A stretch of 64,000 bases of DNA from Patescibacteria group bacterium. GTDB lineage: Bacteria; Patescibacteriota; Patescibacteriia; PEXW01. The DNA is taken from contig JBAYJA010000001.1 of NCBI GenBank assembly GCA_041665345.1, forward strand, positions 137,206 to 201,205, written 5' to 3'. A program made the position numbers and the translations under genes. Below, piece after piece: positions 1,063-36,076 of the stretch. The notes beneath the pieces are model-generated. The model had not been told where the DNA came from. It made no database searches and was given only the letters and a program-made list of their open reading frames with translations. Positions within the stretch are counted from its first letter, which is position 1, and each line of letters starts with the position of its first letter.

Positions 1063-1137
1063 TCCCAGGTAGCTCAGTGGTAGAGCGATCGGCTGTTAAC
1101 CGATTGGTCGTCGGTTCGAATCCGACCCTGGGAGCCA
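1063..1137 (+). tRNA. tRNA-Asn (anticodon GTT)
   Basis: Cloverleaf folded by hand: acceptor tcccagg/cctggga, D-arm agctcagtggtagagc, anticodon stem atcgg/ccgat with loop ctGTTaa, T-arm gtcgg-ttcgaat-ccgac, discriminator g, then CCA encoded. Confidence 0.9.
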
Positions 1138-4840: not shown

Positions 4841-5902
4841 GTGAGTATCACGATGAAAGACCATTTGCAGGGAAGCTTGCTGGGGGTTCGCATTGGCGAC
4901 GCACTGGGTATGCCGGTGGAAACCATGTCACCGGCAGAAATTTTAGCGGCTACGGATGGTAAAGGTGTAACGGGATTTTTAGATGCCATTCAGACAAAGT
5001 ATCCCGATCAAGCTATGCTCAAAAAGGGTGATCCAACCGATGACTGGCAGTTTAATCGGATTGTCGCTAAGTCGCTGATTGCTTGTAGGGGTTACAACCA
5101 AGCAGATATGGCGCGTCGGCACGTGGCTGAAAAAGACGTGAATATGATCGGCTGGGGGAAAACCACACGGTCGGCCACCATGGAATTGGCAACCTATTTT
5201 GCCAGCGGAGGCCAGTATGGTCGAGATCCGAACAATTTGCCCGAAGCTAAACCCGATTTTGGTGGCGGGAACGGCGTGGGTATGAAAGTATTTTCACTTC
5301 CCTCGGCAATCCTCGCCGCGGAATATGGTGCCCAGTACCGTTACCCAGAGTACACGTTGTTCCGTTGGGTCGAGCAGCTGACCATGTTAACGCATAGTCA
5401 TAGTGACGCATTTTTTACCGCGTACGCATTGGCGGTTGCGTTTGATGCTTGTGTTCGTGATGCAGTTTATACGTCATCGGATGCGCAACGGCTGCTCCAA
5501 AAAATCGATTTCGAACTTGCTAAAGTTGAAAATGCATCGCGCTATCGAGACGTAAGTGCAACACGCAAACAGATTGGCCGTCTGATGTATTGCATTGGTA
5601 ACCCCGGTAAAGTCACTGAAAATTTCCCTCCATATGGGTTAGCGATTCAGTCTGTACCCTTTGCTTTAGGCATTTTTCTCACCTATCCTGGGGATGCGCG
5701 GAAAGCATTGTTGACCTGTGTAAATGCTGGGTACGATTGCGACACCACGGCAGCCATGTGCGGCAGCCTCCTTGGCGCGAATGGGGGAGTGGAGGCATTC
5801 CCGGCAGAGTGGCGGAACTTCCGACCCGACTTCCAGGAACCGCTGGAGTTGGGCGAAAGATTGTACCAAGCTTTTGCTCGGACGTCCCAACAAACCTCGT
5901 AA
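4841..5902 (+). CDS. ADP-ribosylglycohydrolase family protein (DraG/ARH-like)
   Basis: G(VRI)GDALGMPVE near the N-terminus and CDTTAAMCGSLLGANGG near the C-terminus are the two hallmark Mg-binding motifs. GTG start is 5 nt after an AGGAG SD. Confidence 0.85.
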   Translation: MSITMKDHLQGSLLGVRIGDALGMPVETMSPAEILAATDGKGVTGFLDAIQTKYPDQAMLKKGDPTDDWQFNRIVAKSLIACRGYNQADMARRHVAEKDVNMIGWGKTTRSATMELATYFASGGQYGRDPNNLPEAKPDFGGGNGVGMKVFSLPSAILAAEYGAQYRYPEYTLFRWVEQLTMLTHSHSDAFFTAYALAVAFDACVRDAVYTSSDAQRLLQKIDFELAKVENASRYRDVSATRKQIGRLMYCIGNPGKVTENFPPYGLAIQSVPFALGIFLTYPGDARKALLTCVNAGYDCDTTAAMCGSLLGANGGVEAFPAEWRNFRPDFQEPLELGERLYQAFARTSQQTS

Positions 5903-5926
5903 TTTGAAACTCTTGCACTTTGCATT

Positions 5927-5958
5927 CCACCCCTTGGGAAACTGAGGGGTGGTTTTTT
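5927..5958 (+). terminator. hairpin ccacccc-ttgggaaactga-ggggtgg plus tttttt
   Basis: 7-bp GC stem with a T6 run. Confidence 0.7.
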
Positions 5959-7706: not shown

Positions 7707-7735
7707 GCTTGACGGCTTTTGTGAGCGGGTTTACT
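7707..7735 (+). promoter_or_regulatory. promoter gggcTTGACG-17-TACTAT upstream of the NrtR gene
   Basis: The ORF track proposes a TTG start at 7703 that falls inside this promoter-like box. I interpret the box as a promoter. Confidence 0.45.
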
Positions 7736-7759
7736 ATGTGTATATCTTACACTAAGTAT

Positions 7760-8434
7760 ATGGCCAAGGTTGCTCGGAAGTACAAATTTGCAGTCATTGC
7801 CTCGGATGTCGTCATGCTGACCGTCCGCGATGGAAAGCTGGAAGTGCTTTGCATTCAGATGCAGAAAGCGCCGTTTATTGGGAAATGGGCCGTGCCGGGC
7901 GGGTTAGTGCAGCCAACGGAATCTGTGGACGAAGCCGCACACCGGATTTTGGCGGAAAAAGCCGGAATCCATGGGGTATACCTGGAGCAGCTGTACACCT
8001 TTGGCAAAGTGCGCCGGGATCCTTTTGGCCGCGTGGTTTCTGTGGCGTACTTCGCGCTGGTGCCCAGTGACGCACTCCGTCTGAAGACCACCAAGGAGTA
8101 CAAGGATGTGCAGTGGTTTCCCGTGAAGAAACTGCCTGGCCTGGCTTACGATCACGCAGACATTGTAGCCACGGCTGTGCAGCGCCTGCAGGCCAAGCTG
8201 GGATACACCAACATTGTGTACAGTCTGCTGCCAAAAACCTTTACCCTTTCGGAACTGCAGGGTATGTACGAAACGATTTTGGGAAAAACACTGGACAAGC
8301 GAAATTTTCGGAAAAAAGTCATTGGTTTAAAGCTGGTGAAGCCGGCAGGGGAGCAGCGGAAAGGCCAGGCTAGCCGGCCAGCGGAGCTGTACCGTTTTGC
8401 CGCCACTGAACTGAAGAAAGTGGAGATTCTCTAG
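7760..8434 (+). CDS. nrtR: NrtR-family regulator (Nudix domain fused to a C-terminal winged helix)
   Basis: Nudix signature GKWAVPGGLVQPTESVDEAAHRILAEKAGI. The C-terminal TLSELQGMYETILGKTLDKRNFRKKV is typical of the NrtR DNA-binding domain. Start set at ATG 7760 (MAKVARKYKFAVIASD). Confidence 0.75.
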   Translation: MAKVARKYKFAVIASDVVMLTVRDGKLEVLCIQMQKAPFIGKWAVPGGLVQPTESVDEAAHRILAEKAGIHGVYLEQLYTFGKVRRDPFGRVVSVAYFALVPSDALRLKTTKEYKDVQWFPVKKLPGLAYDHADIVATAVQRLQAKLGYTNIVYSLLPKTFTLSELQGMYETILGKTLDKRNFRKKVIGLKLVKPAGEQRKGQASRPAELYRFAATELKKVEIL

Positions 8435-8706
8435 CAAAATTTTTTACCTTCATATAAGTGTAAATAATACACTAACTATATGAGCCTTCTCACCCAATTC
8501 TTTGATGTCAACGTTATTTTACAGACTTCGGGTCAATCATGAGGAGATCTTCCCTGAAGGTGCTTTCTTCGTAGGCCGCACTAAGGAGCGGAGGAAGCAG
8601 TTTGAAGGAAGTTCTGCTCAAAACCAGCAGATTAGCTTCCAAAATTGTAAAGCACTTTGACAATTCGAAACCACCATAGAGTATCAAGAATATGTTTTTT
8701 GTGGGC

Positions 8707-13315: not shown

Positions 13316-15286
13316 TTACTTGATTTTTGGCAAGAATACCCGGTTCGCGTAGAGTTGGGTTGCTAGCTGGCGGTAGCCCGAATCCCAGAAGGTGCTCTGC
13401 CCGTCAATGCGATCAGCGTGTGGTGTTTGGATGCCGCCGTGTGCAGGAAAGAATCGTTCATAGCCCTTGTGCATCAAGCGGTACTGGAGGGTGTCGCGTT
13501 CCAGTTCTTCAATGTACAGTCCCCGCGCTTCTCGCCCATGCAGAGTTTTCTGCGTGTCATACATATACGGTGTTAGCAGTTTTTCGCGCAGTTCGCGAAT
13601 CTCGCTGGCGTTTCCTTCCCAGGCCGCGCCAAAGAGAATATGTGTCCAAGAGCTTTCGCCCAGGGATACTTCAGGACTGTTAAAGTCCTGTACACCTAGA
13701 CCCCCTTTCGTTTCCTCAAGCCAGAATGCAACAACATCACCCTGCAGGTGATTTTGGGTAAAAGTTTCTTTCAGCTGCTTCTGCAGTTTTTCGTGCTCAC
13801 TTGGGGCTACCCCTGGCCGCACGAAGACGCCGGTATCCACATCCGCACCGTTAGCGCCGTAACCCTTCAGCCGTGAACCGAAAAGCAATACCACCGGGTA
13901 GAGTTTTTGCGACAGTTCTGGGTTTGCTTCAATGGCCGCCACAATGTTCTGGGTGTCCTGCACCTCTGCTTTCAGCTCTGAGAGGTTCTTAGAAAACGGT
14001 CCGGCGAGCGCAGGGACGGAAATATCCAGCGCTTCAAGCTCCGACGTTGTAATAAGTTGTAGGCCATGGAGACGGAAGAAAGTTTTTTCTAGCTCCTCAT
14101 GTACTGCTGGCGCAGCTGTGTGCCAGAGAGCGGTGAGCGTATCCTGGTAGCGCTCAAAGAGCACCTGCGCTGCTTGGGGGTTGGTTCGTGTGATTGCTTC
14201 AATAGCCTTGCGGATGCCGTTGATGGCTGCTTGCTGGCTTTCTACGCTGGCCTTCGGGTCAAAATACTCCTCAAGGGTGTGCTGATTGAGTGCTCCATTG
14301 GCGATTGCAGTTTGTAGGGCATCCCCAAGCGTTTCCAGAATTTTGCGTTTTTTTTCGCGTGTTAGCCACGCTTCCCGTTTCTTGGTCATACCCGTGTACG
14401 TCTCAGCGTCAATTTGCTTAAATGCATTTTGGATTGTTTCTTGCAATGCGGAAGGGGATAGGGTTGATGCTGTTGTAGTTTCTTGCTTCTCTGAATGTTC
14501 AGAGGGTATAGAAATTTCTAGCGTCACGTTTCTGACAAAAGCATTGGAAGATGCATGCATTGCTTTCAGCTCTGCCTCATGAAGAAGGCCCAGATCTGCC
14601 AAAACCGGTAGCGTGTCTGCAATGCTCTGTTGCAGCGTTTCATCGTCACTAGATTCCAGAAGCTCCACCACCTCCTGGGTTGTCATGAGATTCCGCTCAA
14701 CGAGTTTGGGAATCAGGTGTGCAGCTTTCACAACCCGTGGTAGATCTCCCGCTCGTGATTCCACATCCAGTACGTCGCCGTCAACAAAGTTTGCCCGGAC
14801 ATCGTGCACCGACAAAAGTTTCTCCCACGCCCTACTGTACGCCTGGCGGAATTCCTCCGTAGCCTGTTGCAGCGCTGGAGAGTCTGGTTCCCAGGTCTTT
14901 GGCGGTAAAAATTCAAAGGGGAGGTAGAGTGCTATCCGTTGGTAATCCTCATCTTCAAGCAGGTATTGCAGTGAAGTGTAGAGTTCCGCCACTTCTGCCT
15001 CAGGAATGTTGCCGTTGGCCACTGCTTCTTCCAATGGAAGATCTGGCCGAGGCAGACGAGAGATGACTTCTTGCAACCTTTGATTCAGTTGCCGGCGCGA
15101 TTCAACCTGATTCTGGAATGCCTCATTTTTGGTGACATGGTCAGGCCAGACCTCTGCCGCATGAGCAAGATCCAGGAAGGATTCCACTGCCGGAGGGGCA
15201 ATAGGGTATCCTTCAGCTCGTTCATGTTCTCGTTTGTAGCCTTCATGGTTCATGTACGTAGCATAAAGTGAATACTCAAAACACAC
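13316..15286 (-). CDS. large protein with a C-terminal Pol-beta-type (minimal) nucleotidyltransferase domain
   Basis: LLFGSRLKGYGANGADVDTGVFV matches the GS-x9-13-DxD NTase motif at about residues 455-480 of 656. The 450-aa N-terminal region is helical and acidic, with no motif I recognise. Confidence 0.6.
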   Translation of the reverse strand: MCFEYSLYATYMNHEGYKREHERAEGYPIAPPAVESFLDLAHAAEVWPDHVTKNEAFQNQVESRRQLNQRLQEVISRLPRPDLPLEEAVANGNIPEAEVAELYTSLQYLLEDEDYQRIALYLPFEFLPPKTWEPDSPALQQATEEFRQAYSRAWEKLLSVHDVRANFVDGDVLDVESRAGDLPRVVKAAHLIPKLVERNLMTTQEVVELLESSDDETLQQSIADTLPVLADLGLLHEAELKAMHASSNAFVRNVTLEISIPSEHSEKQETTTASTLSPSALQETIQNAFKQIDAETYTGMTKKREAWLTREKKRKILETLGDALQTAIANGALNQHTLEEYFDPKASVESQQAAINGIRKAIEAITRTNPQAAQVLFERYQDTLTALWHTAAPAVHEELEKTFFRLHGLQLITTSELEALDISVPALAGPFSKNLSELKAEVQDTQNIVAAIEANPELSQKLYPVVLLFGSRLKGYGANGADVDTGVFVRPGVAPSEHEKLQKQLKETFTQNHLQGDVVAFWLEETKGGLGVQDFNSPEVSLGESSWTHILFGAAWEGNASEIRELREKLLTPYMYDTQKTLHGREARGLYIEELERDTLQYRLMHKGYERFFPAHGGIQTPHADRIDGQSTFWDSGYRQLATQLYANRVFLPKIK

Positions 15287-15407
15287 AACATATTTTATTA
15301 GCCTAGCACTTGCCTACGTAACACCCGTCTTCATCCCTTGAAAAAATGTTTATTTCACCTCTTGACAAGAGTAACAAAAAATGAGAAGGTTGCGGGTCTA
15401 AAAACCA

Positions 15408-15448
15408 GAGATTTGGGAGTGCAAAAGTGCATTTTCACTCCCAAATCT
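15408..15448. promoter_or_regulatory. 41-bp inverted repeat (agatttgggagtg-N14-cactcccaaatct) in the divergent promoter region between the NTase gene and pncA; candidate operator
   Basis: Perfect 13-bp arms. It lies between divergent starts, so it is not a terminator. Confidence 0.45.
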
Positions 15449-15532
15449 TTCCCCTCAATTTCTATTGGATTGAAGGGCAAAAAATGAATAAAAATAACCG
15501 AAATTGTTCACCATTTACAAGAAGGAGGTAGC

Positions 15533-16081
15533 ATGGGAAACCGTGCGCACATCACCATCGATGTGCAGAATGACTTTTGCCCTGAGGGAAGACTTGCGGT
15601 TACTGCGGGTGATGAAGTTGTACCCGTCATTAACCAGCGGGTGAAGAATCCTGCTTATAAACGCAAGTACAATTCCCGTGATTGGCATCCGCCCGGTTCG
15701 GAGCATTTTAAGAAATGGCCGACGCACTGTGTGGAAAAAACTTTGGGTGCAGCCTTTCATCCGGATTTGGATCTCACAGACGCAGTGATTATTACCAAAG
15801 GTCAAGACCCGGCGCTCGATGGTTACAGCGCCTTTGAGGGTACGACGTCCTGGGGAGCAATGCTGGAAGATGATCTTCGCGCACATGGAATCACCGACAT
15901 TGACATCGAAGGTTTGGCTACTGAATATTGCGTGAAGAAATCTGCTATTGATGGAGCCAAACGTGGTTTCAACGTTACGGTGTACCTCGATGGCTGCCGG
16001 GCAGTGAATATCAAGCCGGGCGACGAAGAAGCAGCGATTGTCGAAATGCGTGCCGCCGGCGTCAACGTTGTGGCCGCCTAA
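15533..16081 (+). CDS. pncA: nicotinamidase/pyrazinamidase (isochorismatase family)
   Basis: ITIDVQNDFC...RDWHPPGSEHF...TEYCVKKSAIDG fits the Asp/Lys/Cys triad pattern. AGGAGG SD. Confidence 0.75.
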   Translation: MGNRAHITIDVQNDFCPEGRLAVTAGDEVVPVINQRVKNPAYKRKYNSRDWHPPGSEHFKKWPTHCVEKTLGAAFHPDLDLTDAVIITKGQDPALDGYSAFEGTTSWGAMLEDDLRAHGITDIDIEGLATEYCVKKSAIDGAKRGFNVTVYLDGCRAVNIKPGDEEAAIVEMRAAGVNVVAA

Positions 16082-16161
16082 GCATAAACCGCTCATTCGC
16101 ACTTGGAGGTACGCGTTCAACTCGCGTACCTCCACCCAAAAAATTTCTTTTAGAGCTTTGT

Positions 16162-16232
16162 GACAGTCACCTGACTGTCCCATTCCTCTGGTCATAACAT
16201 AAGGTTGTGGCCTTGCACTTTCAGAAATACAC
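16162..16232 (+). promoter_or_regulatory. regulatory module copy 1: 8-2-8 palindrome gacagtca-cc-tgactgtc, 6 nt, then a 47-nt conserved element ctctggtcataacataaggttgtggccttgcac...
   Basis: Recurs at 16638-16708 with the same spacing, directly upstream of the next gene. The element can form a 9-bp RNA hairpin ggucauaac/guuguggcc using G-U pairs. Confidence 0.55.
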
Positions 16233-16255
16233 ATTCAATCAGAACGAGGTGAAAC

Positions 16256-16570
16256 ATGGTAAACGTACAAGCCTTTGAGTTGCGGAAGTTGATTCCCGAA
16301 CTTGAGGCACAACTCAAGCAAGCGAGACAAGCGCTTGAAGCGATTGAAGCACGGTGCTCGCATAGCTGGGGCCCAGTACAGTACGACCCCATCGAGCATG
16401 CTGCATATCACATTCCCGGCGACCCGCCGGAGTTTAGCGGCGCAGATCATCGATTTCCAATGGACGTGCCCGCCCGAACCGAGAAACGTTGGCGACGGGA
16501 TTGCATCCATTGCGGAAAACCAGAATACACAAACCATACAAAACCTGCTGGGGAAGAGCCAGTGTTCTAA
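16256..16570 (+). CDS. hypothetical small protein (Cys/His-rich)
   Basis: 104 aa. CSHSW...CIHCGKPEY. SD gaggtg upstream. Confidence 0.5.
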   Translation: MVNVQAFELRKLIPELEAQLKQARQALEAIEARCSHSWGPVQYDPIEHAAYHIPGDPPEFSGADHRFPMDVPARTEKRWRRDCIHCGKPEYTNHTKPAGEEPVF

Positions 16571-16637
16571 TGGATGTTGTGGGTGAAGTATGTGCTTGTT
16601 TGTGCATACTTCACCCCTTTCTCATGAAGAGACGAGA

Positions 16638-16708
16638 GATGATTATGTGATCATCTTCTATCTCTGGTCATAACATTAGGTTGTGGCCTTGCACCTTAAG
16701 AAAATGAA
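16638..16708 (+). promoter_or_regulatory. regulatory module copy 2: palindrome gatgatta-tg-tgatcatc, 6 nt, then the conserved element ctctggtcataacattaggttgtggccttgcacc...
   Basis: About 90% identical to copy 1 over 47 nt. A partial third copy (tgcaccttgaaaacatg) lies at 18256-18285 upstream of the Nudix/pncB genes. Confidence 0.55.
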
Positions 16709-16731
16709 TTTCATCCGAAAGTGAGGATACA

Positions 16732-18132
16732 GTGAAAGTCATCATGTATGGCTTAAGCGCTAATCCGCCTGGGATACACCATCGTTTATTGGTGCAGGAA
16801 ATGGCGAAGTATGCAGACCTGGTCATTGTGGTGCCGTGCGGTTTACGGCCGGACAAGTTGACCACGAATGATATCCCGCCGTTGTACCGTGCAGCAATGA
16901 CCGACATGACCTTTCAGGACATTCCAAATGTATGCGTGGATCTGTCTGACTTAGAACGATCAGTATTCACGCGAAGTTGGGAGTTGTTGCAAAGGTATGA
17001 GCGAGAATATCCTGGAGCGGAACTTTGCTTGGCAGTTGGTGGCGATCTTATTGCCAACGGTCGCTATGGTGAGTCAGCCATTCACCGCAAGTGGGAGCAG
17101 GGGAAAACACTGTGGGAAAATGCAAACTTCATTGTTTGCAATCGCCTGCACACTCCCTTTGATCCTGTGGATCTACCCCCACACTGCCAGTTTGTGCATG
17201 TAGACCTTGTCGGTTCCAGCACAGACATTCGGGATCGCGTGTTCGGACACAAACCAATTACCGGTTTGGTGATGCCGAGCGTGGAGACCTACATTCATCG
17301 GTACAATCTGTACCGGGGCATGATGGCGGCCACAACCGCGAAGCATGCCAGCTTAGATAATCCTCGCCTGCTCATACTGGCAGATGCTGAGACGCCACGA
17401 GCAATGGCAATCGCTTCGCAGTTCGCGCGGTTTGAGGATGCTGAAAATCCAAACGGCATTTTGGTCTGTGGCGGTGATGGCATGATGCTGCAAGCAATTC
17501 GGCAGGAGTGGCGCCGACGTTTGCCCTTCATCGGCATGAATGCTGGCCATTGGGGGTTCCTCATGAATAGCTTCGAAGAAATCACCGCAATGGATCACGC
17601 CTTTGATGACCTCTCTTTTGTCCAGTCGCCCATGCTGTACGTGGAGTCAGTGCGGCCAGATGGAACCACGGCAAATGCCTTGGCGTTCAACGACTGCTGG
17701 ACGCATTCGCAGAACAATGGGCAAGCAGCGAAATCTGAGGTTCGCGTGAACGGCAGAGTCTGCCTCAAGTCCGTGGTGTCAGATGGCATGCTGGTGAGTA
17801 CGGCCGCGGGATCAACCTCGTATGCGCGGGCAATGGGCGCTATGCCACTTCCGGTGGGCTCGAGTCAGCTTATCCTCGTGGGCAGCAATGTGTTTTCCCC
17901 CTTTGGGTGGCGGCCAGCGTACCTGCCAATTACCGATCGGATTTGCATCCGAACTTTGGAACCGGAGAAGCGTCCGGTAGATGCATTTGTTGATGGTATT
18001 TCCTTTGGGCAAACCATGCAGCTCGATGCCCGAACCAGCAATATTGCTTCCGTGGAAATTGGATTCTTCGGCGCACACGATTTGCAGGAGAAGATCCGCG
18101 CAATTCAGTTCGTTGAGCAGTATCTTCAATAG
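16732..18132 (+). CDS. bifunctional fusion: nicotinate/nicotinamide-mononucleotide adenylyltransferase (NadD-like) N-terminal, NAD kinase (NadK) C-terminal
   Basis: The N-terminus MYGLSANPPGIHHRLL matches the (H/T)xGH nucleotidyltransferase motif of NadD. The C-terminus has GGDGMML (NAD kinase GGDGT motif), NDxW and TAAGSTSYARAMGA (NadK GSTAYS motif). It is a single 466-aa ORF. Confidence 0.8.
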   Translation: MKVIMYGLSANPPGIHHRLLVQEMAKYADLVIVVPCGLRPDKLTTNDIPPLYRAAMTDMTFQDIPNVCVDLSDLERSVFTRSWELLQRYEREYPGAELCLAVGGDLIANGRYGESAIHRKWEQGKTLWENANFIVCNRLHTPFDPVDLPPHCQFVHVDLVGSSTDIRDRVFGHKPITGLVMPSVETYIHRYNLYRGMMAATTAKHASLDNPRLLILADAETPRAMAIASQFARFEDAENPNGILVCGGDGMMLQAIRQEWRRRLPFIGMNAGHWGFLMNSFEEITAMDHAFDDLSFVQSPMLYVESVRPDGTTANALAFNDCWTHSQNNGQAAKSEVRVNGRVCLKSVVSDGMLVSTAAGSTSYARAMGAMPLPVGSSQLILVGSNVFSPFGWRPAYLPITDRICIRTLEPEKRPVDAFVDGISFGQTMQLDARTSNIASVEIGFFGAHDLQEKIRAIQFVEQYLQ

Positions 18133-18302
18133 TCGCACTTTCCATTGTGCGGGGGCATGGTTCTACTCCATGCCCCCCGCATATTCCTTCAAAGCTTTGC
18201 AACGAACTTGGTTGGTTGCAGCGCTTTCATCCAGAAATAGTTCTGGGTGATGCACCTTGAAAACATGCAAGCAAATGAACATATATTTGAGAAAGGAACA
18301 TT

Positions 18303-18917
18303 ATGGTACAGCCAAAAGTGCGACCGCAAGGCAGTTTCGCCTTGGAGACTGTTGATATCAATGGTCGAAATTGGTCGGTGCTACACGCTTCAGACTCAGC
18401 CGGTTTATTGGTCTTTCTGAAAGATCGTAATGCCATTGTGCTGGTCCGGCAGCAGCGTGCGCCCATGGTTTCTGCACACAATCCGGAAGGTTCGATTACG
18501 GAACTTCTCGCTGGTCGGTTCGACAAAGACGAGACGCCAATCCAGTTGCTGGTTCGCGAGGCTTCAGAGGAAGCTGGAATCGCCATTGATGCCAGTCAGA
18601 TCAAAGTACTCAACTTTGGTCACCCGCTTGCCCTCTCAGCCGGCATTATTGATGAACTATGCTGGATTGGTTACGTGGAAATTTCCGATGACCAAATTGA
18701 CCCCAGCGGTAAGCTTTACGGACTGCACGAGGAAGGAGAGTTCATTGACCGGATCATGATTCCGGTTGAGCAACTTGAATCCCTGGTTTGTGAAGATGCT
18801 CGTGTCTTCGGCATGATCCAGTGGTTCCTGCGTTGGCAAATGGAACACCGTCTGCAAGCATTAACAGACCAGCTGGAGAAATTCGAACGCGAGATGAACG
18901 AAACGAAAACGATTTGA
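18303..18917 (+). CDS. Nudix hydrolase, likely ADP-ribose pyrophosphatase
   Basis: Nudix box GRFDKDETPIQLLVREASEEAGI. Sits between nadD-nadK and pncB. Confidence 0.7.
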   Translation: MVQPKVRPQGSFALETVDINGRNWSVLHASDSAGLLVFLKDRNAIVLVRQQRAPMVSAHNPEGSITELLAGRFDKDETPIQLLVREASEEAGIAIDASQIKVLNFGHPLALSAGIIDELCWIGYVEISDDQIDPSGKLYGLHEEGEFIDRIMIPVEQLESLVCEDARVFGMIQWFLRWQMEHRLQALTDQLEKFEREMNETKTI

Positions 18918-18926
18918 AGGGAGTGA

Positions 18927-20195
18927 TTGAAGGTGCTTACAACACGCTTTATTCGAAAAGATGAGGCGATCATCCAGTCGTTGCTTGACGTGGACTTCTA
19001 TAAGTTCACGATGAGCCACTTCATTTGGAAGTACTACCGGGACGTCGAGGTAACCTTCGGGATGAAGAACCGTACGAGTCACGTTCGCCTCGCGGAAATT
19101 ATTCCAGAAGGAGCTTTACGTGAGCAGCTGAACTACGTCCGGGATTACCTCAGATTCAACTTGAGTGAAATTTTTTACATGCGAGGTATGGATATCTACG
19201 GGAAGAACATGTTTTCGGAGGATTACCTGGATTTCCTGAAGGCACTCGCCATGAGTGATTATCAGTTACGCGTGGTTGATGGTCAGTTTGATCTACGCTT
19301 CACTTGTCTTTGGCCGGCCGTTACTTTCTGGGAGACAATTTCGCTGGCGATTGCCAACGAGTTGTACTACCTAGAAATCCTGAAGGAAGAAACTCGGTTC
19401 GATCGACAGGCAATCTATGCCGAAGGTATCAAGCGACTCCACGAGAAAATAAAAAAACTCAAGGAGCACCCTGACCTAACATTCATCGAGTTTGGTACAC
19501 GCCGGAGATTTGGCCGAGTTTGGCAGCGCGATGTCGTCTGTGCGTTAGCCGAAGAATTACCACCGACGCAATTCCGTGGTACGTCAAACACAAAGTTGGC
19601 GTTTGACCTTGGCTTAGTTCCCATGGGTACCAACGCGCATGAACTGCAAATGGTAGTTGGCGCCCTCGCTAAGGACGATGCTGCACTTCTGGCTTCCACT
19701 GACAAAGTGCTTGATCAGTGGTGGGAGTTGTACGGTTACGGTCTCTCTATCGCGCTACCGGACACTTTTGGCTCCGATTTCTTCTTTCAAACATTTGGTG
19801 AAGAGCGAGCAAAGAAGTGGAAAGGTGTGCGGGAGGACTCCCGTGATCCGTTTGTGGGCGGCGAGCAAGTTATTCAGTACTACCAGAGTCTAGGTATTGA
19901 CCCCAAGACGAAGCTCTGGTTGCCGAGTGATGGTTTAGACATTCAGAAGATCATCGCGCTTCACAATCAATTTTGTAACCGCATCGGCCTGTCATTTGGC
20001 TGGGGCACAACCCTCACGAATGATCTCGGTTTACCCACGCTCTCTCTTGTCGCCAAGACAATTGAAGCGAATGGCCGACCGTGTGTGAAGCTTTCGGACA
20101 ATTTGGCCAAGGCCATGGGTCCGAAAGATGAAGTCGAACGGTATAAACGCGTATTCGGCTATACGAATACGCATACCGAAGAGTGCAAAGTCTGA
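18927..20195 (+). CDS. pncB: nicotinate phosphoribosyltransferase
   Basis: 422 aa with NAPRTase-family motifs (FGTRR...; LPDTFGSDFF; VREDSRDP). TTG start is 4 nt after an AAGGGAG SD. Confidence 0.85.
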   Translation: MKVLTTRFIRKDEAIIQSLLDVDFYKFTMSHFIWKYYRDVEVTFGMKNRTSHVRLAEIIPEGALREQLNYVRDYLRFNLSEIFYMRGMDIYGKNMFSEDYLDFLKALAMSDYQLRVVDGQFDLRFTCLWPAVTFWETISLAIANELYYLEILKEETRFDRQAIYAEGIKRLHEKIKKLKEHPDLTFIEFGTRRRFGRVWQRDVVCALAEELPPTQFRGTSNTKLAFDLGLVPMGTNAHELQMVVGALAKDDAALLASTDKVLDQWWELYGYGLSIALPDTFGSDFFFQTFGEERAKKWKGVREDSRDPFVGGEQVIQYYQSLGIDPKTKLWLPSDGLDIQKIIALHNQFCNRIGLSFGWGTTLTNDLGLPTLSLVAKTIEANGRPCVKLSDNLAKAMGPKDEVERYKRVFGYTNTHTEECKV

Positions 20196-20327
20196 TTTGC
20201 TTGCATGGTATGTACATTCCGGTGGGAGATTTCAACTATCTCCCACCCCTCATTCTAGTTATGCAAGAGTTTGGATAATTGAAGTGAGGAAAACTGATCA
20301 TTATAAACATATTGCACAGGAGGAAAA

Positions 20328-20807
20328 ATGCGCGTCGTATACTGGCTTGAAACCTTTCCACCACCGAGTGACAAATCAATTTTTTTAGCCGGACCTACGC
20401 CACGGCATGAAGGAGTGCAAACCTGGCGTCCAAAGGCGCTGGAAACGTTGGAGCGGCTTGGGTATGACGGCGTGGTCTTTGTACCTGAGTATCGTAACGG
20501 CCAGTTGCCAAAGGTGGATATGGCAGCGTATACGGATCGGATTGACTGGGAAACCAGTGCCCTTGCGCGGGCTCAAGTTATTGCCTTCTGGGTACCACGT
20601 GTACTGGAGACCATGCCAGCCTTCACGACCAATATCGAATTTGGTGAATGGTTCAAGTCCGGCAAAATTGTTCTGGGTACGCCGCCAGAAGCGCGGAAGG
20701 TAAGTTACATGCGTTACCGCGCTGGTCAACATCTGGTGCCGCTGGCAGAAACGTTGGAAGACACGCTGAAACTGGCTTTGCGGAAGCTGGGCGATCTTGC
20801 AAAGTAA
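20328..20807 (+). CDS. nucleoside 2-deoxyribosyltransferase-like (Rossmann) protein
   Basis: IFLAGPTPR ... VIAFWVPR ... TNIEFGEW resembles the NDT/YtoQ family pattern. AGGAGG SD. Confidence 0.5.
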   Translation: MRVVYWLETFPPPSDKSIFLAGPTPRHEGVQTWRPKALETLERLGYDGVVFVPEYRNGQLPKVDMAAYTDRIDWETSALARAQVIAFWVPRVLETMPAFTTNIEFGEWFKSGKIVLGTPPEARKVSYMRYRAGQHLVPLAETLEDTLKLALRKLGDLAK

Positions 20808-20926
20808 AAAGGTTCTTTCGGTGGAGAAGCATTTCTCCACCGTTCCCTCCAGCATCCCACAAGTAGTGGGGGATTGGAGGGAAAGAAAAAAGTTAATTAA
20901 AAACTCAATAGAGAAAGGACATAGTT

Positions 20927-22588
20927 GTGAAAATCGCTTTGCTCCAACTGAATTTTACCGTGGGTGATTTAGAAGGAAACACCACGAAGATTATTGCTGG
21001 CTATCAGCAGGCGAAAGCGCAAGGTGCGCGGTATGCAGTGAGTTCGGAGTTGGCTATCTTTGGCTACCCGCCTCAGGATTTGTTGGAATTTCCAGAATAC
21101 TTGGAACGTCAAGATGCGCAAATTGAACGCCTCCGTCAGGAAGTGAAGGGCGAAACGAGCCTCATTGTTGGCATTGCGGAGCGGAATACCACCGGGACAG
21201 GGAAACCCCTGTTTAACAGTGTGATACACATCTACGATCAACAGGTGCTGGTTATTGGTCGGAAGTGTTTACTGCCGACGTACGATGTATTTGATGAGCA
21301 GCGGTATTTCACGCCTGCCGAACTCCCGCGTCCGATCAGGCGGGATAGGACATCCATCGCCACATTAGTATGCGAAGACATTTGGTACGGTTCTGAATTT
21401 GTCAGCGGTCATCATCTGTACAAAGATGATCCAGTCGGTCACCTTGAGGGTCTGGGTGTGGACTTCCTTTTCGTTCTCAACGGTTCGCCGTACACCTGGC
21501 ACAAAGGTCGGGAGCGGTTTACCCTAGTGCAGAATATCGCACAGCGTTGCAAGTGTAACGTAGTGTACGTCAATCAAGTTGGCGGCAATGACGACATTCT
21601 TTTTGACGGCCGGAGTTTCGTTGTCAATCCCCAAGGGGAATGCATTGGCGCTGCGGAGCCGTTCAAGGAGCAGGTTGTTATAGTCGATATGGACAACCCT
21701 ACTCCGGTTGCGTATCCGTTCGATGATAACCTGCGTGATCTCTACGATGCTTTGGTTATGGCCACCCGTGATTACATTGCGAAAGTTGGTTGTCAGCAAG
21801 GTGTGGTCATTGGCCTTTCTGGCGGTATTGACTCTGCGTTAACCGCGGCAATCGCAGTTGATGCGCTGGGCCCCGACAAGGTTGTAGGCATAACCATGCC
21901 CTCAGTGCTCTCTTCGAGCGGGAGCGTCAGTGACTCTCTGGCTCTCGCCAAGAATTTGGGAATACAGTGTTTCACCGTTCCCATTGGTTGTACGGTTGAT
22001 AGCTACGGGAAAGCGCTGGAGCCGATCATTGGTTGGTACCCAGCAACTGCACGACCGGGTGATGTGACCGAGGAGAACATCCAGGCCAGGACGCGGGGGA
22101 ATATACTCATGGCGCTTTCAAACCGGGTGGGAAAAATCGTTTTGACCACCGGCAACAAATCGGAAGTGGCTGTGGGCTACTGCACGTTGTACGGCGATAT
22201 GGCAGGTGGGTATGCGGTCATTTCCGACATTCCCAAGACTTTGGTGTATGCACTCTCAAGGTACGTCAATCGGTTTGGAGAAATCATTCCCGAAAGTACC
22301 CTCACCAAGCCGCCATCGGCCGAACTTCGACCGGATCAGAAAGACACTGATTCATTGCCGGCGTATGAGGTGCTGGATCCGATTCTGAAAGCCTACAATG
22401 AAGATCGGATGACGGTAGGGCAGATTATCGAGCTTGGTTTGGCGGATGCAGCCACAGTGCATCGGGTCATTCGCATGGTCAACACGAATGAGTTCAAACG
22501 GCGGCAACTTGCACCGGGTCCGAAGGTAACCTCCAAAGCCTTTGGGTCTGGTCGGCGCATGCCCATTGCTGCCAAAATGATTAGCTAG
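20927..22588 (+). CDS. nadE: glutamine-dependent NAD+ synthetase
   Basis: N-terminal CN-hydrolase domain (MKIALLQLNFTVGD...). C-terminal PP-loop SGGIDSALTAAIA. 553 aa. Confidence 0.9.
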   Translation: MKIALLQLNFTVGDLEGNTTKIIAGYQQAKAQGARYAVSSELAIFGYPPQDLLEFPEYLERQDAQIERLRQEVKGETSLIVGIAERNTTGTGKPLFNSVIHIYDQQVLVIGRKCLLPTYDVFDEQRYFTPAELPRPIRRDRTSIATLVCEDIWYGSEFVSGHHLYKDDPVGHLEGLGVDFLFVLNGSPYTWHKGRERFTLVQNIAQRCKCNVVYVNQVGGNDDILFDGRSFVVNPQGECIGAAEPFKEQVVIVDMDNPTPVAYPFDDNLRDLYDALVMATRDYIAKVGCQQGVVIGLSGGIDSALTAAIAVDALGPDKVVGITMPSVLSSSGSVSDSLALAKNLGIQCFTVPIGCTVDSYGKALEPIIGWYPATARPGDVTEENIQARTRGNILMALSNRVGKIVLTTGNKSEVAVGYCTLYGDMAGGYAVISDIPKTLVYALSRYVNRFGEIIPESTLTKPPSAELRPDQKDTDSLPAYEVLDPILKAYNEDRMTVGQIIELGLADAATVHRVIRMVNTNEFKRRQLAPGPKVTSKAFGSGRRMPIAAKMIS

Positions 22589-22612
22589 TTCTGAGTTTTG
22601 TACATTCTTTCA

Positions 22613-22645
22613 AACGCCCCTGGCTTTCCTGGGGGCGTTTTTTTA
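22613..22645 (+). terminator. nadE terminator acgcccctgg-ctttcc-tgggggcgt plus T7
   Basis: GC stem plus ttttttt. Confidence 0.75.
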
Positions 22646-22918
22646 TTGACAATTTTTTTGAAAAGCGTAGCCTTGGAAGTGGCCGGTTAAACTACAAAAG
22701 TCAGGCGGACACCGAGGTATGTGTAGGTACTATACCGGTTGGAAACAAAAAGTCGTGAACTCTTGTCCTGTGAATGGAGGGATCTCCACCCCGTGCCGAG
22801 GCCTGGAACGTCTCACGGTCATCACCGCCTGGAAGATGGCGGGTCACTGTTTTGCGGGGGAAATTCGTTTTTGCACTCATTTTGCTGTTTGGGCATCCCT
22901 CGGGGTGCCCTCTTTTTT
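22646..22918 (+). ncRNA. candidate about 240-nt non-coding RNA (promoter TTGACA 22646-22651 through terminator 22891-22918)
   Basis: GC-rich segment with multiple inverted repeats, bounded by a promoter-like box and a strong intrinsic terminator (gggcatccc-tcg-gggtgccc plus T7). The only ORFs run through the terminator. Confidence 0.3.
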
Positions 22919-22947
22919 CAAAGTACATTCACAAGTTATGTTAGAAT

Positions 22948-23811
22948 ATGAATATGAAGGTAGAAAATTTTTTTGGCATAACCAGTATCATTGCCATTTT
23001 GGTGCTAGTTTCTGCATTTACCGCTTCGTACCGTGAGCAGAAGCAGCAATTGCAGCTACTGAACCATAACCCTAGCGTGCAAGTCCTGACGTCGAACGCG
23101 AACATTACCGGGACGAGTATTCTAGATACGGCAACCATAGGCCAGCACAGCACGGCAGGGGATTGCTGGTTGCTGATTCAGGGAAGTGTTTACGACGCCA
23201 CTCAATACCTGCAATTACACCCGGGTGGCCAATCTATTGTTCTACCTTTTTGTGGTGCAGATGCAACCTCGGCGTTTCTGACAAAAGGTGGCCAAGGCTC
23301 ACACTCGCGCACCGCTTTTACCCAGTTGGGTGCGCTATACCTGGGTCAGCTGAACGAGGTCATTGGAAACAGCAATACCAACAGCACCAACACGAACACC
23401 GTGAGTGCGGTGAACACCAACACCGTGACGGTGAATGCGAATACTTCGGCCAGTGTGCCACAACCAAGCAGCACGGTGGTTCTGAATACGGCGACAGTAG
23501 CGAAACATAATACTGCTACCGATTGCTGGCTCATCATTTCTGGGAAAGTCTACGCCGTCAGTGGCTACCTCAGTGCGCACCCGGGTGGTCGTTCCACCAT
23601 TATTCCCTACTGTGGTCGGGATGCAACCCAGGCCTTTGCCACGCAAGGTGGGCAGGGTTCGCACTCCAACTTTGCCAGCCAGCAGCTCAGTGGTTTGGTC
23701 ATTGGCACTGTGGGCAGCACGACCACAACCACAAAAGTGCAGCAAATTGTAACACCATCACCAACTTCGCCCACCACGAATGGGCAGGAAGAAGAAAACG
23801 ATGATGACTAA
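22948..23811 (+). CDS. membrane-anchored protein with two tandem cytochrome b5-like heme-binding domains
   Basis: N-terminal TM helix, then two repeats of HxxxxDCWLxIxGxVYxxxxYLxxHPGGxxxIxxxCGxDATxAF...GGQGSHS, joined by an NTN-rich linker. Confidence 0.75.
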   Translation: MNMKVENFFGITSIIAILVLVSAFTASYREQKQQLQLLNHNPSVQVLTSNANITGTSILDTATIGQHSTAGDCWLLIQGSVYDATQYLQLHPGGQSIVLPFCGADATSAFLTKGGQGSHSRTAFTQLGALYLGQLNEVIGNSNTNSTNTNTVSAVNTNTVTVNANTSASVPQPSSTVVLNTATVAKHNTATDCWLIISGKVYAVSGYLSAHPGGRSTIIPYCGRDATQAFATQGGQGSHSNFASQQLSGLVIGTVGSTTTTTKVQQIVTPSPTSPTTNGQEEENDDD

Positions 23812-24118: not shown

Positions 24119-24220
24119 CGGTGGTTATTGCTTTTTTGCATCTCACTCTGGCATCGCAGAGGGTTTTTTGACATTTAGGTTGTAGCTTGGTAGGGTCTGG
24201 TTATAACAAAGGAGAACAAA

Positions 24221-24430
24221 ATGTTGAAAAAAGTATTCTTACTACTCGGACTCGTTGTCCTGACCAGTACCACAGCGCTTGCTCTTTTGCCAGGTGATAA
24301 ACTTGTGGAACCCTATGTCTTTGATTGGCAAACCTTTACGCTGATTGTGGCTCTGGTAGGGCTCTGCATTTTTCTTTTCGTTATGAAGAGAAAGATAGGG
24401 AAGCGAAATACTGAAATTAAAAAGGAGTAG
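24221..24430 (+). CDS. 69-aa membrane mini-protein, paralogue 1 (signal peptide, short ectodomain with Trp, C-terminal TM, K/R tail)
   Basis: AAAGGAG SD. MLKKVFLLLGLVVLTSTTALA...DWQTFTLIVALVGLCIFLFVMKRKIGKR. Confidence 0.5.
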   Translation: MLKKVFLLLGLVVLTSTTALALLPGDKLVEPYVFDWQTFTLIVALVGLCIFLFVMKRKIGKRNTEIKKE

Positions 24431-24433
24431 ACC

Positions 24434-24643
24434 TTGAAAAAAGCATTCGTCTTTGTAGCAGGATTGTTGATGCTGAGTTTCACAACCGCGTTTACCCTGG
24501 TGGCGGGTGATTCACCCGCTTCACCGCCAGCCCAGTCTTCAGGATCGAGCTGGGGCGAAGCCATTGTTCTCGTTCCAGTCATTGGGCTCCTTCTTTTTTT
24601 CATCTTTACCAGACAAAAATCTGGAAAGCAGAAACAACCATGA
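24434..24643 (+). CDS. 69-aa membrane mini-protein, paralogue 2
   Basis: TTG start after an AAGGAG SD. Same architecture (SWGEAIVLVPVIGLLLFFIFTRQKSGKQKQP). Confidence 0.5.
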   Translation: MKKAFVFVAGLLMLSFTTAFTLVAGDSPASPPAQSSGSSWGEAIVLVPVIGLLLFFIFTRQKSGKQKQP

Positions 24644-24736
24644 TCATTCACAAAAGCGCCCCTGAGTAATCAGCGGCGTTTTTTTGACACCCCAGGCCGA
24701 ACTCGATAGGATGGATGTAACACAAAGGAGATCAAA

Positions 24737-24946
24737 ATGTTAAAAACAGCACTTATTCTATTTGGGGTTCTTGGAGTGCCCATCCTTTTTGCTTTTTATA
24801 TCTTGGACAATCCTGCGAGTCCGCTAGCACATTTTCTTGATTCCCTGCCATCTGATTGGGGAAGATCGCTGTTCCTTATAGCTATCGTGGGCCTCGGTAT
24901 TTACTTCATCATAACTCATAGAAACGCCAGGAAGAAACAACCGTGA
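24737..24946 (+). CDS. 69-aa membrane mini-protein, paralogue 3
   Basis: AAAGGAG SD. Same architecture. Followed by a duplicated terminator aaaagcgcccc...ggggcgctttttt. Confidence 0.5.
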
Positions 24947-24964
24947 TCATTCACAAAAGCGCCC

Positions 24965-24995
24965 CCTCGACACAGTCGGGGCGCTTTTTTCGTCG
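24965..24995. terminator. hairpin aaagcgccccctcgacacagtcggggcgcttt plus T-run; shared by the convergent mini-protein and sod genes
   Basis: Stem gcgcccc/ggggcgc with flanking A/T runs. Confidence 0.7.
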
Positions 24996-27672: not shown

Positions 27673-27821
27673 TCCTTAGGTTTTGGAACCTTTGGTCCTT
27701 GGTTTTAGCCCTTTGGACTAACATATAAAAACCCTGCATCTTCATTTCGTTACAAACGAATGATGAATGTGGGGTTTCTTTTTTTGTATAAAAAAGCCCC
27801 AACCGAAGTTGGGGCGGAATC

Positions 27822-28805
27822 CTACTGATTCAGGATTGTACTGGCGATAATGCGTGCGGCAACTGCTTTCGCTTGCAGTGCTTCAGGGCTAGGGGCGACC
27901 AGAATGACAAAGTCAAGTTGGGTGGACTGGCCAGGCGGAAGTTGCGGAACCATGGCGTACTGGTAGTACACGCAGTCGTAGTTTTGTTTGGTGAGTGGGA
28001 GGTTTTCCATATCACCATTGAAGATATCACGGGAGCTCCAGTGTCCAAAATTTCCAAATTCACCAATGCGACTTTGACTTTCGGTAAATGGGTTGGCAAT
28101 GAACGATCCAATGACTCCAGGCGTAACCGTGCTGCCCCATGCTTGATCATACCCATCAACATCGTAGGTGTAGAGCAGCCCAGGAAATGCTCCAACCGCA
28201 TCATCAAGCCGACCGGCGTCGGTGAAGCCATGTGATTCTCCAATATCAGCATCCAGGTACAGGCCAAGCGAGAGCGGGGAGAAGTTTTCCGTTCCGCAGT
28301 TCACCACGGTGAGCCGAAGGAAGAGGCAGCCGGTAAATAACGGCGCATCCGTGGTGCTGGTCCGCAGGGTGCAGAGAAACGTAGACCCATGCGACTGATC
28401 GTTGAGGATGGTTTCCGTTTGCTCCAACATGAACGACGTGAGTGTGTCATTCAGGATGAGCGGGGCACGGCGGAGGGAAACCGGTTTTTGCGTACCATCA
28501 GGTTGCACCACACCCATCAACTCATTTGTCGTTGAGGCGATGTACTCGTGATTTTTCGTCGCGCCGTTCAGGAGGAACCCGCACTCACCCAGGTAATTCC
28601 GGCCAGAACCCGCGGGCCATTCAAATGATGGGAGATCAAGGCCGGGGTAGCCACCAATGGCGCCCCAGGCGGCAACCGTTGTTCGGAAACCAGCGTGGTC
28701 GAGGATCGTTGGCGTTGGCGGCGTGGTATACCAGGCCAGTGCGGTTTGAAACAGGAGTGTGCTGAGAGCCAGCAAACGAAGGCAGAAATGGAATGAGCGT
28801 TTCAT
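27822..28805 (-). CDS. secreted hypothetical protein (signal peptide)
   Basis: MKRSFHFCLRLLALSTLLFQTALA signal peptide, then 300 aa of unknown domain. Confidence 0.6.
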   Translation of the reverse strand: MKRSFHFCLRLLALSTLLFQTALAWYTTPPTPTILDHAGFRTTVAAWGAIGGYPGLDLPSFEWPAGSGRNYLGECGFLLNGATKNHEYIASTTNELMGVVQPDGTQKPVSLRRAPLILNDTLTSFMLEQTETILNDQSHGSTFLCTLRTSTTDAPLFTGCLFLRLTVVNCGTENFSPLSLGLYLDADIGESHGFTDAGRLDDAVGAFPGLLYTYDVDGYDQAWGSTVTPGVIGSFIANPFTESQSRIGEFGNFGHWSSRDIFNGDMENLPLTKQNYDCVYYQYAMVPQLPPGQSTQLDFVILVAPSPEALQAKAVAARIIASTILNQ

Positions 28806-35331: not shown

Positions 35332-35339
35332 GCGCGGCT

Positions 35340-36074: not shown

Positions 36075-36076
36075 CC

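Follow-up and report, generated by a model that had tools for sequence, protein, structure and literature searches.

Nicotinamide adenine dinucleotide (NAD+) riboswitches comprise two classes: class I, the nadA motif, consists of tandem bulged stem-loops, and class II is the pnuC motif. Other leader hairpins occur in protein-binding attenuation leaders, such as the PyrR binding loops and the RAT hairpins of BglG/SacY-type antiterminators, and are recognized by a pathway-specific RNA-binding protein. Intercistronic hairpins that direct processing or stabilize the transcript include the RNase III sites of phage T7 and the 5′ and 3′ stabilizing hairpins of the pap and puf operons. NAD-synthesis clusters and the regulator NrtR are also well known. 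Patescibacteria (candidate phyla radiation, CPR) have very small genomes and rely on scavenging for their precursors, and to our knowledge almost nothing is known about gene regulation in them. NrtR sites are palindromes of ~21 bp with a conserved GT-N7-AC core, and characterized NrtR homologues sense ADP-ribose (PMC2330246). Here we describe an ~80-nt element of two hairpins, P1 and P2 (the module), which is present in four copies in the NAD-salvage gene cluster of a 64-kb stretch of DNA from a Patescibacteria group bacterium (contig JBAYJA010000001.1; the whole stretch is called the window, and positions are counted from its first nucleotide). Judging from sequence, we give a probability of about 0.5 to the reading that the module is a cis-acting RNA element, in leader and intercistronic positions, that is used by a trans-acting protein or RNase for the NAD-salvage cistrons.

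The module shares with the NAD+ riboswitches two consecutive stem-loops in the leader of NAD-biosynthesis genes, and a feedback role is plausible. Unlike them, it has no Rfam match, is conserved in its stems and not in bulges or loops, and has no expression platform that we could find; its taxon (Patescibacteria) and targets (the salvage genes pncA, pncB, and nadD) also differ. As in processing sites, there is an intercistronic arrangement of a stable upstream hairpin, an AU-rich linker, and a hairpin at what would be the new 5′ end, with helices that are free in sequence. In contrast to such sites, the module has a motif with invariant basal pairs and a fixed polarity, it is restricted to one operon and recurs across genera, and cleavage here is putative. 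PyrR and RAT leaders are similar in having a leader hairpin with conserved stem nucleotides and, as in pyr, several copies per operon; however, the module is not followed by an overlapping terminator/antiterminator pair, its sequence does not resemble those sites, and no candidate RNA-binding protein was identified. Like NrtR operators, the module presents palindromes before NAD-metabolism genes in an NrtR-encoding genome, and P2 spans 20–23 bp compared with 21–23 bp for NrtR (PMC2330246), but its helices vary in sequence and spacing and covary as hairpins, whereas the NrtR box of this genome flanks nrtR and is missing from the modules.

An earlier note on this DNA, made from the sequence alone, had reported a palindrome and a conserved element duplicated with identical spacing upstream of two consecutive genes, and this was borne out. 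The first palindrome (GACAGTCA-CC-TGACTGTC, 16162–16179) is followed after a 6-nt gap by CTCTGGTCATAACATAAGGTTGTGGCCTTGCACTTTCAGAAA (16186–16227). The second (GATGATTA-TG-TGATCATC, 16638–16655) has one T:G position, can be extended to a 9-2-9 palindrome (16637–16656), and is separated by the same 6 nt from its conserved element (16662–16703). The palindrome centre lies 15.5 nt before the element in each copy, both elements end 28 nt 5′ of a start codon (ATG 16256 and GTG 16732), and the consensus common to the two is CTCTGGTCATAACATWAGGTTGTGGCCTTGCACYTT. Searching the window with a 36-nt pattern at ≤3 mismatches returned exactly these two matches, where 100 shuffles gave an expectation of 0.00. 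The conserved block recovered by a repeat search was 42 nt long with 93% identity and three mismatches (family D11), so that its length is ~42–43 nt and not the 47 nt first given. The 9-bp hairpin with G-U pairs that had been proposed (GGUCAUAAC/GUUGUGGCC, two U·G pairs) came out as the predicted centroid structure when each copy was folded. A third site before the Nudix/pncB genes does exist (TGCACCTTGAAAACATG, 18251–18267), but what had been described as a partial copy is a complete module with different stems.

The repeated unit is larger than first noted, and comprises a long hairpin (P1), whose tip is the palindrome, and a short hairpin (P2), which is the G·U hairpin. The architecture of ~80 nt runs from P1 through the abutting P2, with 0–1 nt between them, to a loose (U)GCAC-like tail, an A-rich tract, and the Shine–Dalgarno sequence (SD). 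P1 is long and irregular, with conserved basal pairs A-R-A-G...C-U-Y-U (AGAG...CUCU or AAAG...CUUU) and a conserved UUG; P2 has 8–10 bp. The sequences of both helices differ between copies in the same genome, with copies 1 and 2 on one side and copy 3 and the pncA copy each different (Table 1).

To describe the distribution of the module, we built a covariance model (R1) from an alignment of 21 modules and searched the window with the speed filters off. Only four sense-strand copies were found in the 64 kb, all of them in the NAD cluster, preceding pncA, a small Cys/His open reading frame (ORF), nadD-nadK, and Nudix-pncB. Three were training copies (70.6–71.1 bits), and only the copy in the pncA leader had not been used in training; no further sense-strand match below E 0.01 occurred in the whole window. 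Among 184 fetched comparison loci (L001–L184), the model detected 29 sense-strand copies in ~14 genomes, every one before genes of the NAD-salvage cluster. The genes preceded were of the pncA type, a conserved gene for a protein of ~300 aa, the small ORF, nadD-nadK, an unfused nadD (L138), and Nudix(-pncB) (L129, L137). Relatives carry the element before orthologous genes; its absence there was one of the outcomes that the earlier note would have taken as a refutation. The orientation toward the downstream gene is the same in all copies, and the antisense matches of the model are palindromic shadows of sense-strand sites. Lineages that differ widely in base composition (L112, L137) retain the element, whose GC content is 21–56% across lineages, and so do those with an unfused nadD (L112, L129, L137, L138). 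The family of nadD-nadK fusions is large, and no element was found upstream of the fusion gene in loci of Verrucomicrobiota, Planctomycetota, and Acidobacteriota. Within the cluster, the deoxyribosyltransferase-like (NDT), nadE, and prs genes carry other hairpins and not this motif. Two weak matches, L031 7559–7621(−) and window 27779–27835(−), were discarded as plain terminator hairpins.

Known RNA families, including the NAD+ riboswitch classes, were rejected because no covariance model of Rfam 15 matched. A cmscan of window positions 15000–23000 at E up to 10 gave only chance-level matches to unrelated families, and six related loci searched at E up to 1 gave 0 matches. No description of the element was found in Rfam 15 or, in a narrow check, in papers on viral and jumbo-phage NAD systems. 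We assign the four copies to a previously undescribed family of ~80-nt two-hairpin leaders of small-genome (Patescibacteria-type) bacteria.

Both helices covary strongly in homologous loci, as examined by the covariation analysis that had been suggested with the original observation. In a MAFFT alignment of 21 modules from ~11 genomes (alignment A6, 87 columns), 84.3% of the cells were paired, compared with 36–45% in slid registers. Compensatory changes were present in 24 of the 27 pairs: 16 of 18 in P1 (columns 6–23/28–45) and 8 of 9 in P2 (columns 46–54/61–69). Cells with double changes numbered 109, against 43 ± 5 in shuffles, and the observed values were reached by none of 500 shuffles. 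The pairing result also held in each of two gene classes analyzed separately. Even near relatives differ by double compensatory swaps (e.g., CGAAAA/UUUUCG vs. CGAACC/GGUUCG). The P2 loop ranges from 3 to 11 nt, and the Nudix copy of L001 has a 48-nt insertion that falls precisely within the P1 apical loop, leaves both arms in place, and still allows a score of 55.6 bits. This loop insertion with intact arms, together with the variation in spacing and the double swaps, argues for a hairpin rather than a dimeric operator. Because the lengths of P1 and P2 vary, promoter elements spanning either helix are excluded.

When conservation was scored per position (28 members, effective number 22), most of it fell in the stems. 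The most conserved positions are the invariant A5, A7, U40, and U42 of the basal P1 helix, G13, and parts of P2; positions of at least 1 bit are almost all in stems, the junction has 0–1 nt, and loops, junction, and tail are weakly conserved. This pattern is unlike that of typical aptamers and fits helices that would be recognized by a protein or an RNase. When the paired columns were pooled, there were 46 G·U and 25 A·C cells. Of the A·C cells, nine came from two columns of P2 and five from a column that mostly belongs to an internal loop, whereas G·U recurs at several columns and across many lineages. Partners of the conserved G13 were C (10) and U (9) in similar numbers. The pooled excess of G·U and the pairing of G13 lean moderately toward an RNA of the sense strand.

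In the stretch from pncA to nadE, we saw a single housekeeping-type promoter, the one before pncA. It matches the window family CTTGACA-N16/17-TAGnGT (repeat families D1/D2) and is below the threshold of the promoter scan. Relatives have TTGACA-N17-TAAGGT (L020), TTGACA-N17-TACTCT (L041), TTGACA-N17-TAGTAT (L002), and TTGACA-N17-TAAAGT (L177) before pncA. The pncA-type copies begin ~14–40 nt after the −10 hexamer of canonical TTGACA-N17-TAnnnT promoters (window, L002, L020), and would therefore lie inside the leader transcript; P1 of copy 0 in the window begins ~17 nt after it. In L041 and L177, the same kind of promoter is followed by hairpins that the model does not detect. No sigma-70-type promoter was found between the upstream terminator-like hairpins and the start codons of the later cistrons, and for this reason pncA to nadE appears to form a single transcription unit whose intercistronic regions are long and structured.

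GC-rich hairpins precede all intercistronic modules, in relatives as well as in the window, and the U-tracts of these terminator-like hairpins are offset by 3–8 nt. The one after pncA, whose U-tract does not abut the stem, received no terminator call in the scan and is either terminator-like or a 3′ stabilizer; the one after nadD-nadK recurs in L001 with almost no change, even in the loop. Between the GC-rich hairpin and each intercistronic module lies an AU-rich linker, often CCAAUUUUUU. By analogy, hairpin, linker, and module would correspond to the layout of a 3′ stabilizer, a cleavage site, and a 5′ stabilizer. Neither hairpin of the module is followed by a U-tract, since P1 leads into P2 and P2 into the GCAC tail, and the attenuator proposed earlier was abandoned on this ground.

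We propose that the cluster would be transcribed from the sigma-70-type promoter upstream of pncA, and that the element would fold in the intercistronic RNA as well as in the 5′ leader. The conserved basal helix and the P1/P2 stack would be read by a factor acting in trans, which would most likely be a protein or an endoribonuclease. By acting on every copy, this factor would set the processing, stability, or translation of the NAD-salvage cistrons coordinately. The action as RNA, the single transcript, the nature of the factor, and its output are what we infer from the sequences. The earlier suggestion of an RNA-level, possibly protein-binding leader is the part that best fits the covariation, the variable loops, the fixed position, and the location downstream of promoters; its argument from G-U pairs and its attenuator did not hold. 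A pseudoknot between the P2 loop and the tail, or an alternative pairing of the 3′ arm of P2 with the tail, was inconsistent between copies on inspection.

Several results weigh against the proposal of an RNA element read by a trans-acting factor. Sense folds were better than reverse-complement folds in 13 modules and worse in 10, with a mean difference of 0.07 kcal/mol, so that fold energy gives the sense strand no overall advantage. In the L017–L020 clade, the antisense strand folds 2–12 kcal/mol better, which results from inherited A·C mismatches. Given these two observations, the argument that a hairpin formed only with G-U pairs must act as RNA is not a general one. The covariation of inverted repeats would also arise from DNA-level hairpins. 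The Nudix intergenic cassette is ~95% identical, loops included, between the window and L001, with flanking coding DNA that cannot be aligned and proteins that are 37–59% identical; such a high identity could reflect recent exchange and not selection. Two adjacent hairpins are common in the intergenic DNA of this genome, so the shape alone is not distinctive, and it was rejected as a statistical signature. If the GC-rich terminator-like hairpins before every intercistronic copy were efficient, downstream promoters that we did not find would be needed. No candidate trans-acting RNA-binding protein or RNase appeared among the results. Two structural outputs also failed. The GCAC/CACCUU tail was rejected as an anti-SD because its pairing with its own SD did not exceed that of shuffled or swapped tails (mean z −0.1). 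A closing helix between the 5′ U/C-rich flank and the 3′ purine tract, which would form a three-way junction, did not exceed composition-matched controls (mean z +0.39).

The window encodes a true NrtR at 7761–8434 (ATG 7761; Pfam NUDIX 8e-18, NrtR_WHD 1.4e-24) with a promoter TTGACG-N17-TACTAT at ~7711–7739 that overlaps the first of its boxes. Its operator is ACTATGTGTAnnnnnTACACTAAGT, with the core GT-N7-AC. Two boxes flank nrtR here (Table 1) and also in L020, L035, and L028, and a box follows the stop in L002, a locus that starts inside nrtR. Box 2 of the window is followed by an ATG and a 20-codon ORF, and a separate promoter at ~8706 precedes a 285-aa gene at 8812. With a weight matrix built from seven boxes of five genomes, true boxes scored 22–31 bits, the best scores of three modules were 0.9, 2.0, and −6.6 bits, and the 99.99th percentile of the window was 4.4. 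The sequence GTGT-N7-ACAC occurs in the window only at 7738 and 8458. The P2 centre of the modules is AAC-N4-7-GTT, and the P1 tip is GT-N6-AC in copy 1 and has no GT/AC in copy 2, so the GT-N7-AC core is absent from them. On the matrix scores, the modules were rejected as NrtR operators, and the genome's own box is a different palindrome. The link to NrtR made in the earlier note was thus misplaced: the Nudix gene of the cluster has no DNA-binding domain, and the box of the real NrtR is missing from the modules. The element suggests two layers of NAD control, in which NrtR would act at nrtR and its neighbor, and the leader element at the salvage genes.

One alternative is that the module is a riboswitch, in which the P1/P2 junction and the tail would bind NAD+, nicotinic acid adenine dinucleotide, nicotinic acid mononucleotide, ADP-ribose, or niacin and thereby control the translation or stability of each cistron. 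The strict association with NAD salvage across lineages of 21–56% element GC, the covarying helices, the leader position 28–55 nt before the start codons, and the absence of a known RNA family that accounts for the element would all agree with this. Canonical NrtR boxes do not cover these genes, which leaves them without other recognized feedback control. Invariant basal pairs of P1 adjoin the junction and could contribute to a pocket, although it is doubtful that these pairs, the P1/P2 stack, and the tail together form one for a metabolite. However, the conserved nucleotides are almost all in stems, and the loops, junction, and tail are poorly conserved, unlike known aptamers; P2 occurs in at least four unrelated sequence types; and no expression platform was found, either as a terminator after P2 or as an SD-sequestering pairing. 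We regard a riboswitch as fairly unlikely, and only tentatively mention that it would be a new class in Patescibacteria, the first for NAD salvage (Preiss–Handler) genes, with each cistron gated separately. The modules might instead be passive or mobile cassettes with no NAD-specific signal, such as generic stabilizing or processing hairpins or REP/PeSL-like palindromes whose gene association reflects shared cluster ancestry. Adjacent hairpin pairs are common between the genes of this genome, a GC-rich hairpin and an AU-rich linker come before each intercistronic copy in the classic stabilizer and cleavage layout, and genomes differ in which genes carry which P2 type; the near identity of the window and L001 cassettes, with an indel and unalignable coding DNA around them, suggests exchange. 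Against this, the motif (the A-R-A-G...C-U-Y-U base, UUG, P2, and polarity) is found only in the NAD cluster within 64 kb, it persists across differing base composition and with unfused nadD, the compensatory changes show long-term selection for pairing, and the hairpins of the NDT, nadE, and prs genes in this cluster are of other kinds. A passive or mobile cassette is judged unlikely.

The modules could also act as DNA. Their palindromes would then be bound, as duplex or cruciform, by NrtR in a noncanonical manner or by another regulator, which would block RNA polymerase or act as a roadblock to it. Inverted repeats do lie upstream of NAD genes in NrtR-encoding genomes, the nadD-class P2 half-site GG[CT]C[AG][CT]AAC is conserved with only transitions, on both arms, and both the lack of an overall strand bias in fold energy and the location of the conserved positions in helices are compatible with a DNA operator. 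We consider it quite unlikely, as the NrtR box of the genome itself is absent from the modules by the scores above and the P2 centre differs from the GT-N7-AC core of NrtR sites (PMC2330246). The spacing of half-sites varies by 3–8 nt in P2 and by 48 nt in P1, the unrelated stem sequences in one genome would need several regulators, no promoter is present that an operator could overlap, and in the pncA copies the start site is upstream of the module. The asymmetric operator of the earlier note met the same difficulty, since the copies of a single genome have stems of different sequence. Finally, each module might be a promoter of a non-housekeeping type, dependent on an alternative sigma factor or on the hairpin, with transcription starting inside it. 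A terminator-like hairpin stands before every intercistronic module, and no sigma-70 promoter can be seen for the genes that follow; a conserved TTG lies 8–9 nt into P1; and the tail TTGCA resembles the −12 element of sigma-54, with a correctly spaced GG in copies 1 and 2. The GG-N10-GC geometry nevertheless fails in copy 3, L001, L017, and L027, and the variable lengths of P1 and P2 are incompatible with elements that span them. A promoter placed wholly after P2 would start transcription inside or after the SD, and the pncA-type copies already sit downstream of a normal promoter. Sigma-70 and sigma-54 promoters inside the module were rejected from this geometry and the variable helix lengths, and we consider the promoter explanation very improbable.

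If the element is confirmed as RNA read by a trans-acting factor, it would offer a rare handle on post-transcriptional control in Patescibacteria. It is operon-specific and supported by covariation, it precedes cistrons of the NAD-salvage cluster, and it is separate from the recognizable NrtR system of the same genome. Two tempting misreadings are also corrected: the locus is cellular and not from a huge phage, and the palindromes are not NrtR sites.

Table 1. Positions in the window of the modules, of related signals, and of genes
Feature	Position	Strand	Sequence, score, or basis
Module copy 0 (pncA leader)	15403–15493	+	R1 match 30.6 bits, E 5e-7; non-training
Copy 0 P1	15407–15450	+	AGAGAUUUGGGAGUG...CACUCCCAAAUCUUU; fold
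Copy 0 P2	~15451–15477	+	Then A-rich tract; fold
Module copy 1	16148–16228	+	R1 match 70.6 bits
Copy 1 P1	16152–16189	+	AGAG...CUCU base; 8-2-8 palindrome 16162–16179 = apical stem; folds
Copy 1 P2	16190–16212	+	GGUCAUAAC-AUAAG-GUUGUGGCC, two U·G pairs; abuts P1, no linker
Copy 1 tail, A-rich tract, SD	16213–16255	+	UUGCACUUU, A-rich tract, SD GAGGUG; up to ATG 16256
Module copy 2 (nadD-nadK)	16624–16704	+	R1 match 70.7 bits; folds
Copy 2 P1	16628–16665	+	AGAGA...UCUCU; apical palindrome 16637–16656
Copy 2 P2	16666–16688	+	
Copy 2 tail	16689–16697	+	UUGCACCUU; then SD GUGAGGA and GTG 16732
Module copy 3 (Nudix-pncB)	18187–18265	+	R1 match 71.1 bits
Copy 3 P1	~18191–18227	+	AAAGCUUUGCAAC...GUUGCAGCGCUUU; class consensus fold, pair counts
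Copy 3 P2	18227–18250	+	UCAUCCAGAA-AUAG-UUCUGGGUGA
Copy 3 tail	18251–18258	+	UGCACCUU
pncA sigma-70-type promoter	15362–15390	+	TTGACA 15362–15367, 17-nt spacer, GAAGGT 15385–15390
GC-rich hairpin after pncA stop	16105–16133	+	GGAGGUACGCG-loop-CGCGUACCUCC, then ACCCAAAAAAUUUCUUUU
GC-rich terminator-like hairpin after small-ORF stop	16581–16616	+	Scan: 15 pairs, tail CTTTCTCATG
GC-rich hairpin after nadD-nadK stop	18149–18180	+	GCGGGGGCAUGG...CCAUGCCCCCCGC
NrtR box 1	7733–7757		ACTATGTGTATATCTTACACTAAGT, 25-bp palindrome; 31.3 bits (weight matrix); promoter directly 5′, nrtR 3′
NrtR box 2	8453–8477		TATAAGTGTAAATAATACACTAACT; 28.9 bits; just 3′ of nrtR stop
pncA	15533–16081		
Small Cys/His ORF, 104 aa	16256–16570		ATG start 16256
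nadD-nadK fusion	16732–18132		GTG start 16732
Nudix hydrolase without DNA-binding domain	18303–18917		Domain search
pncB	18927–20195		
Deoxyribosyltransferase-like (NDT) gene	20328–20807		
nadE, glutamine-dependent	20927–22588		
Full-length sigma-70	3–908		
tRNA-Asn	1063–1137		
Pyruvate kinase	2559–3572		
SufC/SufBD/SufS	35208–41478		
DsbD/HMA/cupredoxin	48042–49721		
Cu P-type ATPase	51631–53844		
DsbA-like	56109–60966 region		

The window is cellular DNA of a Patescibacteria metagenome-assembled genome (MAG). The 104-aa Cys/His ORF exactly matches a hypothetical protein that NCBI lists for a Patescibacteria group bacterium MAG, and the closest loci are from MAGs labelled Patescibacteria, Parcubacteria, or Komeilibacteria. 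A huge-phage origin was rejected on this match and on the cellular genes (Table 1), to which ABC transporters can be added; a phage nucleotide search and IMG/VR searches returned nothing related to the window. The NAD cluster is syntenic across a small-genome clade (L001, L002, L017–L020, L027, L033, L035, L041, L177, and L184), in which the DNA before nadD-nadK and before Nudix-pncB folds in every case into the arrangement of P1, P2, and tail described above. The product of nadD-nadK has a Pfam NAD_kinase match and its homologues carry CTP_transf_like; its GTG start is backed by homologous spacing of the ribosome-binding site in L001.

In relatives, the ~300-aa protein is encoded between pncA and nadD-nadK (L002 6926–7840, L019 3930–4823, L177 2981–3880), where the window has the 104-aa Cys/His ORF in its place. 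It contains the motifs MNGYS, GASDxGVD, and LIATGGRE. A Pfam search of the module-associated proteins of unknown function, this one included, gave no annotation. As the same leader element precedes its gene, it probably belongs to the NAD pathway or to its control.

A further gene with a link to ADP-ribose, that of an ADP-ribosylglycohydrolase (4841–5902), lies close to the NAD cluster, ~2 kb upstream of nrtR. After its stop codon come TTGCACTTTG and a terminator (5914–5950), and GCACTT also occurs after the stops of pncA (~16097) and nadD-nadK (~18136).

The hairpins of the NDT and nadE genes may represent further leader classes in the same operon. Other long conserved hairpins follow an upstream terminator at 20808–20926 and 20196–20327 in the window, at ~9100–9200 in L017, and at ~5200–5340 in L001. 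One type, UUCCCUCCAGCAUCCCAC...GUGGGGGAUUGGAGGGAAAG, is common to the window, L001, and L017, and a second, UUAUCYGAGUUACU..., occurs in L019, L027, L184, and L017.

Elsewhere in the window, several small genes between 3596 and 7568 are fronted by a terminator hairpin (GGAGCACTTCGGTGCTCC or GGAGTCGCTTCGGCGACTCC plus a T-run), ~10 nt, and then an CTTGACATTT-N-TAGnGT promoter (repeat families D1, D2, D4, and D13), which resemble promoter/stem-loop cassettes. A conserved hairpin, CCCC(N)ACCCCCTCCTT-NNN-AAGGAGGGGA followed by an GTTTGNGGT(TCAT) flank, is found at 34786–34838, 41710–41750, and 59091–59143 (families D5 and D9). Hairpin-dense noncoding stretches, with several very stable neighboring stem-loops on both strands, lie at 41480–41960, 43400–43640, and 47200–48060 (e.g., 41488–41550, ~−36 kcal/mol), and may be structured RNAs or repeat elements; a near-identical 39-nt repeat is present at 32557 and 41486 (family D6). 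Two tandem paralogous small genes with signal-peptide-like N-termini are located at 24206–24965 (ACAAAGGAGAnCAAAATGTTrAAAA..., family D8), and a 33-nt repeat occurs at 24630 and 24933 (family D12).

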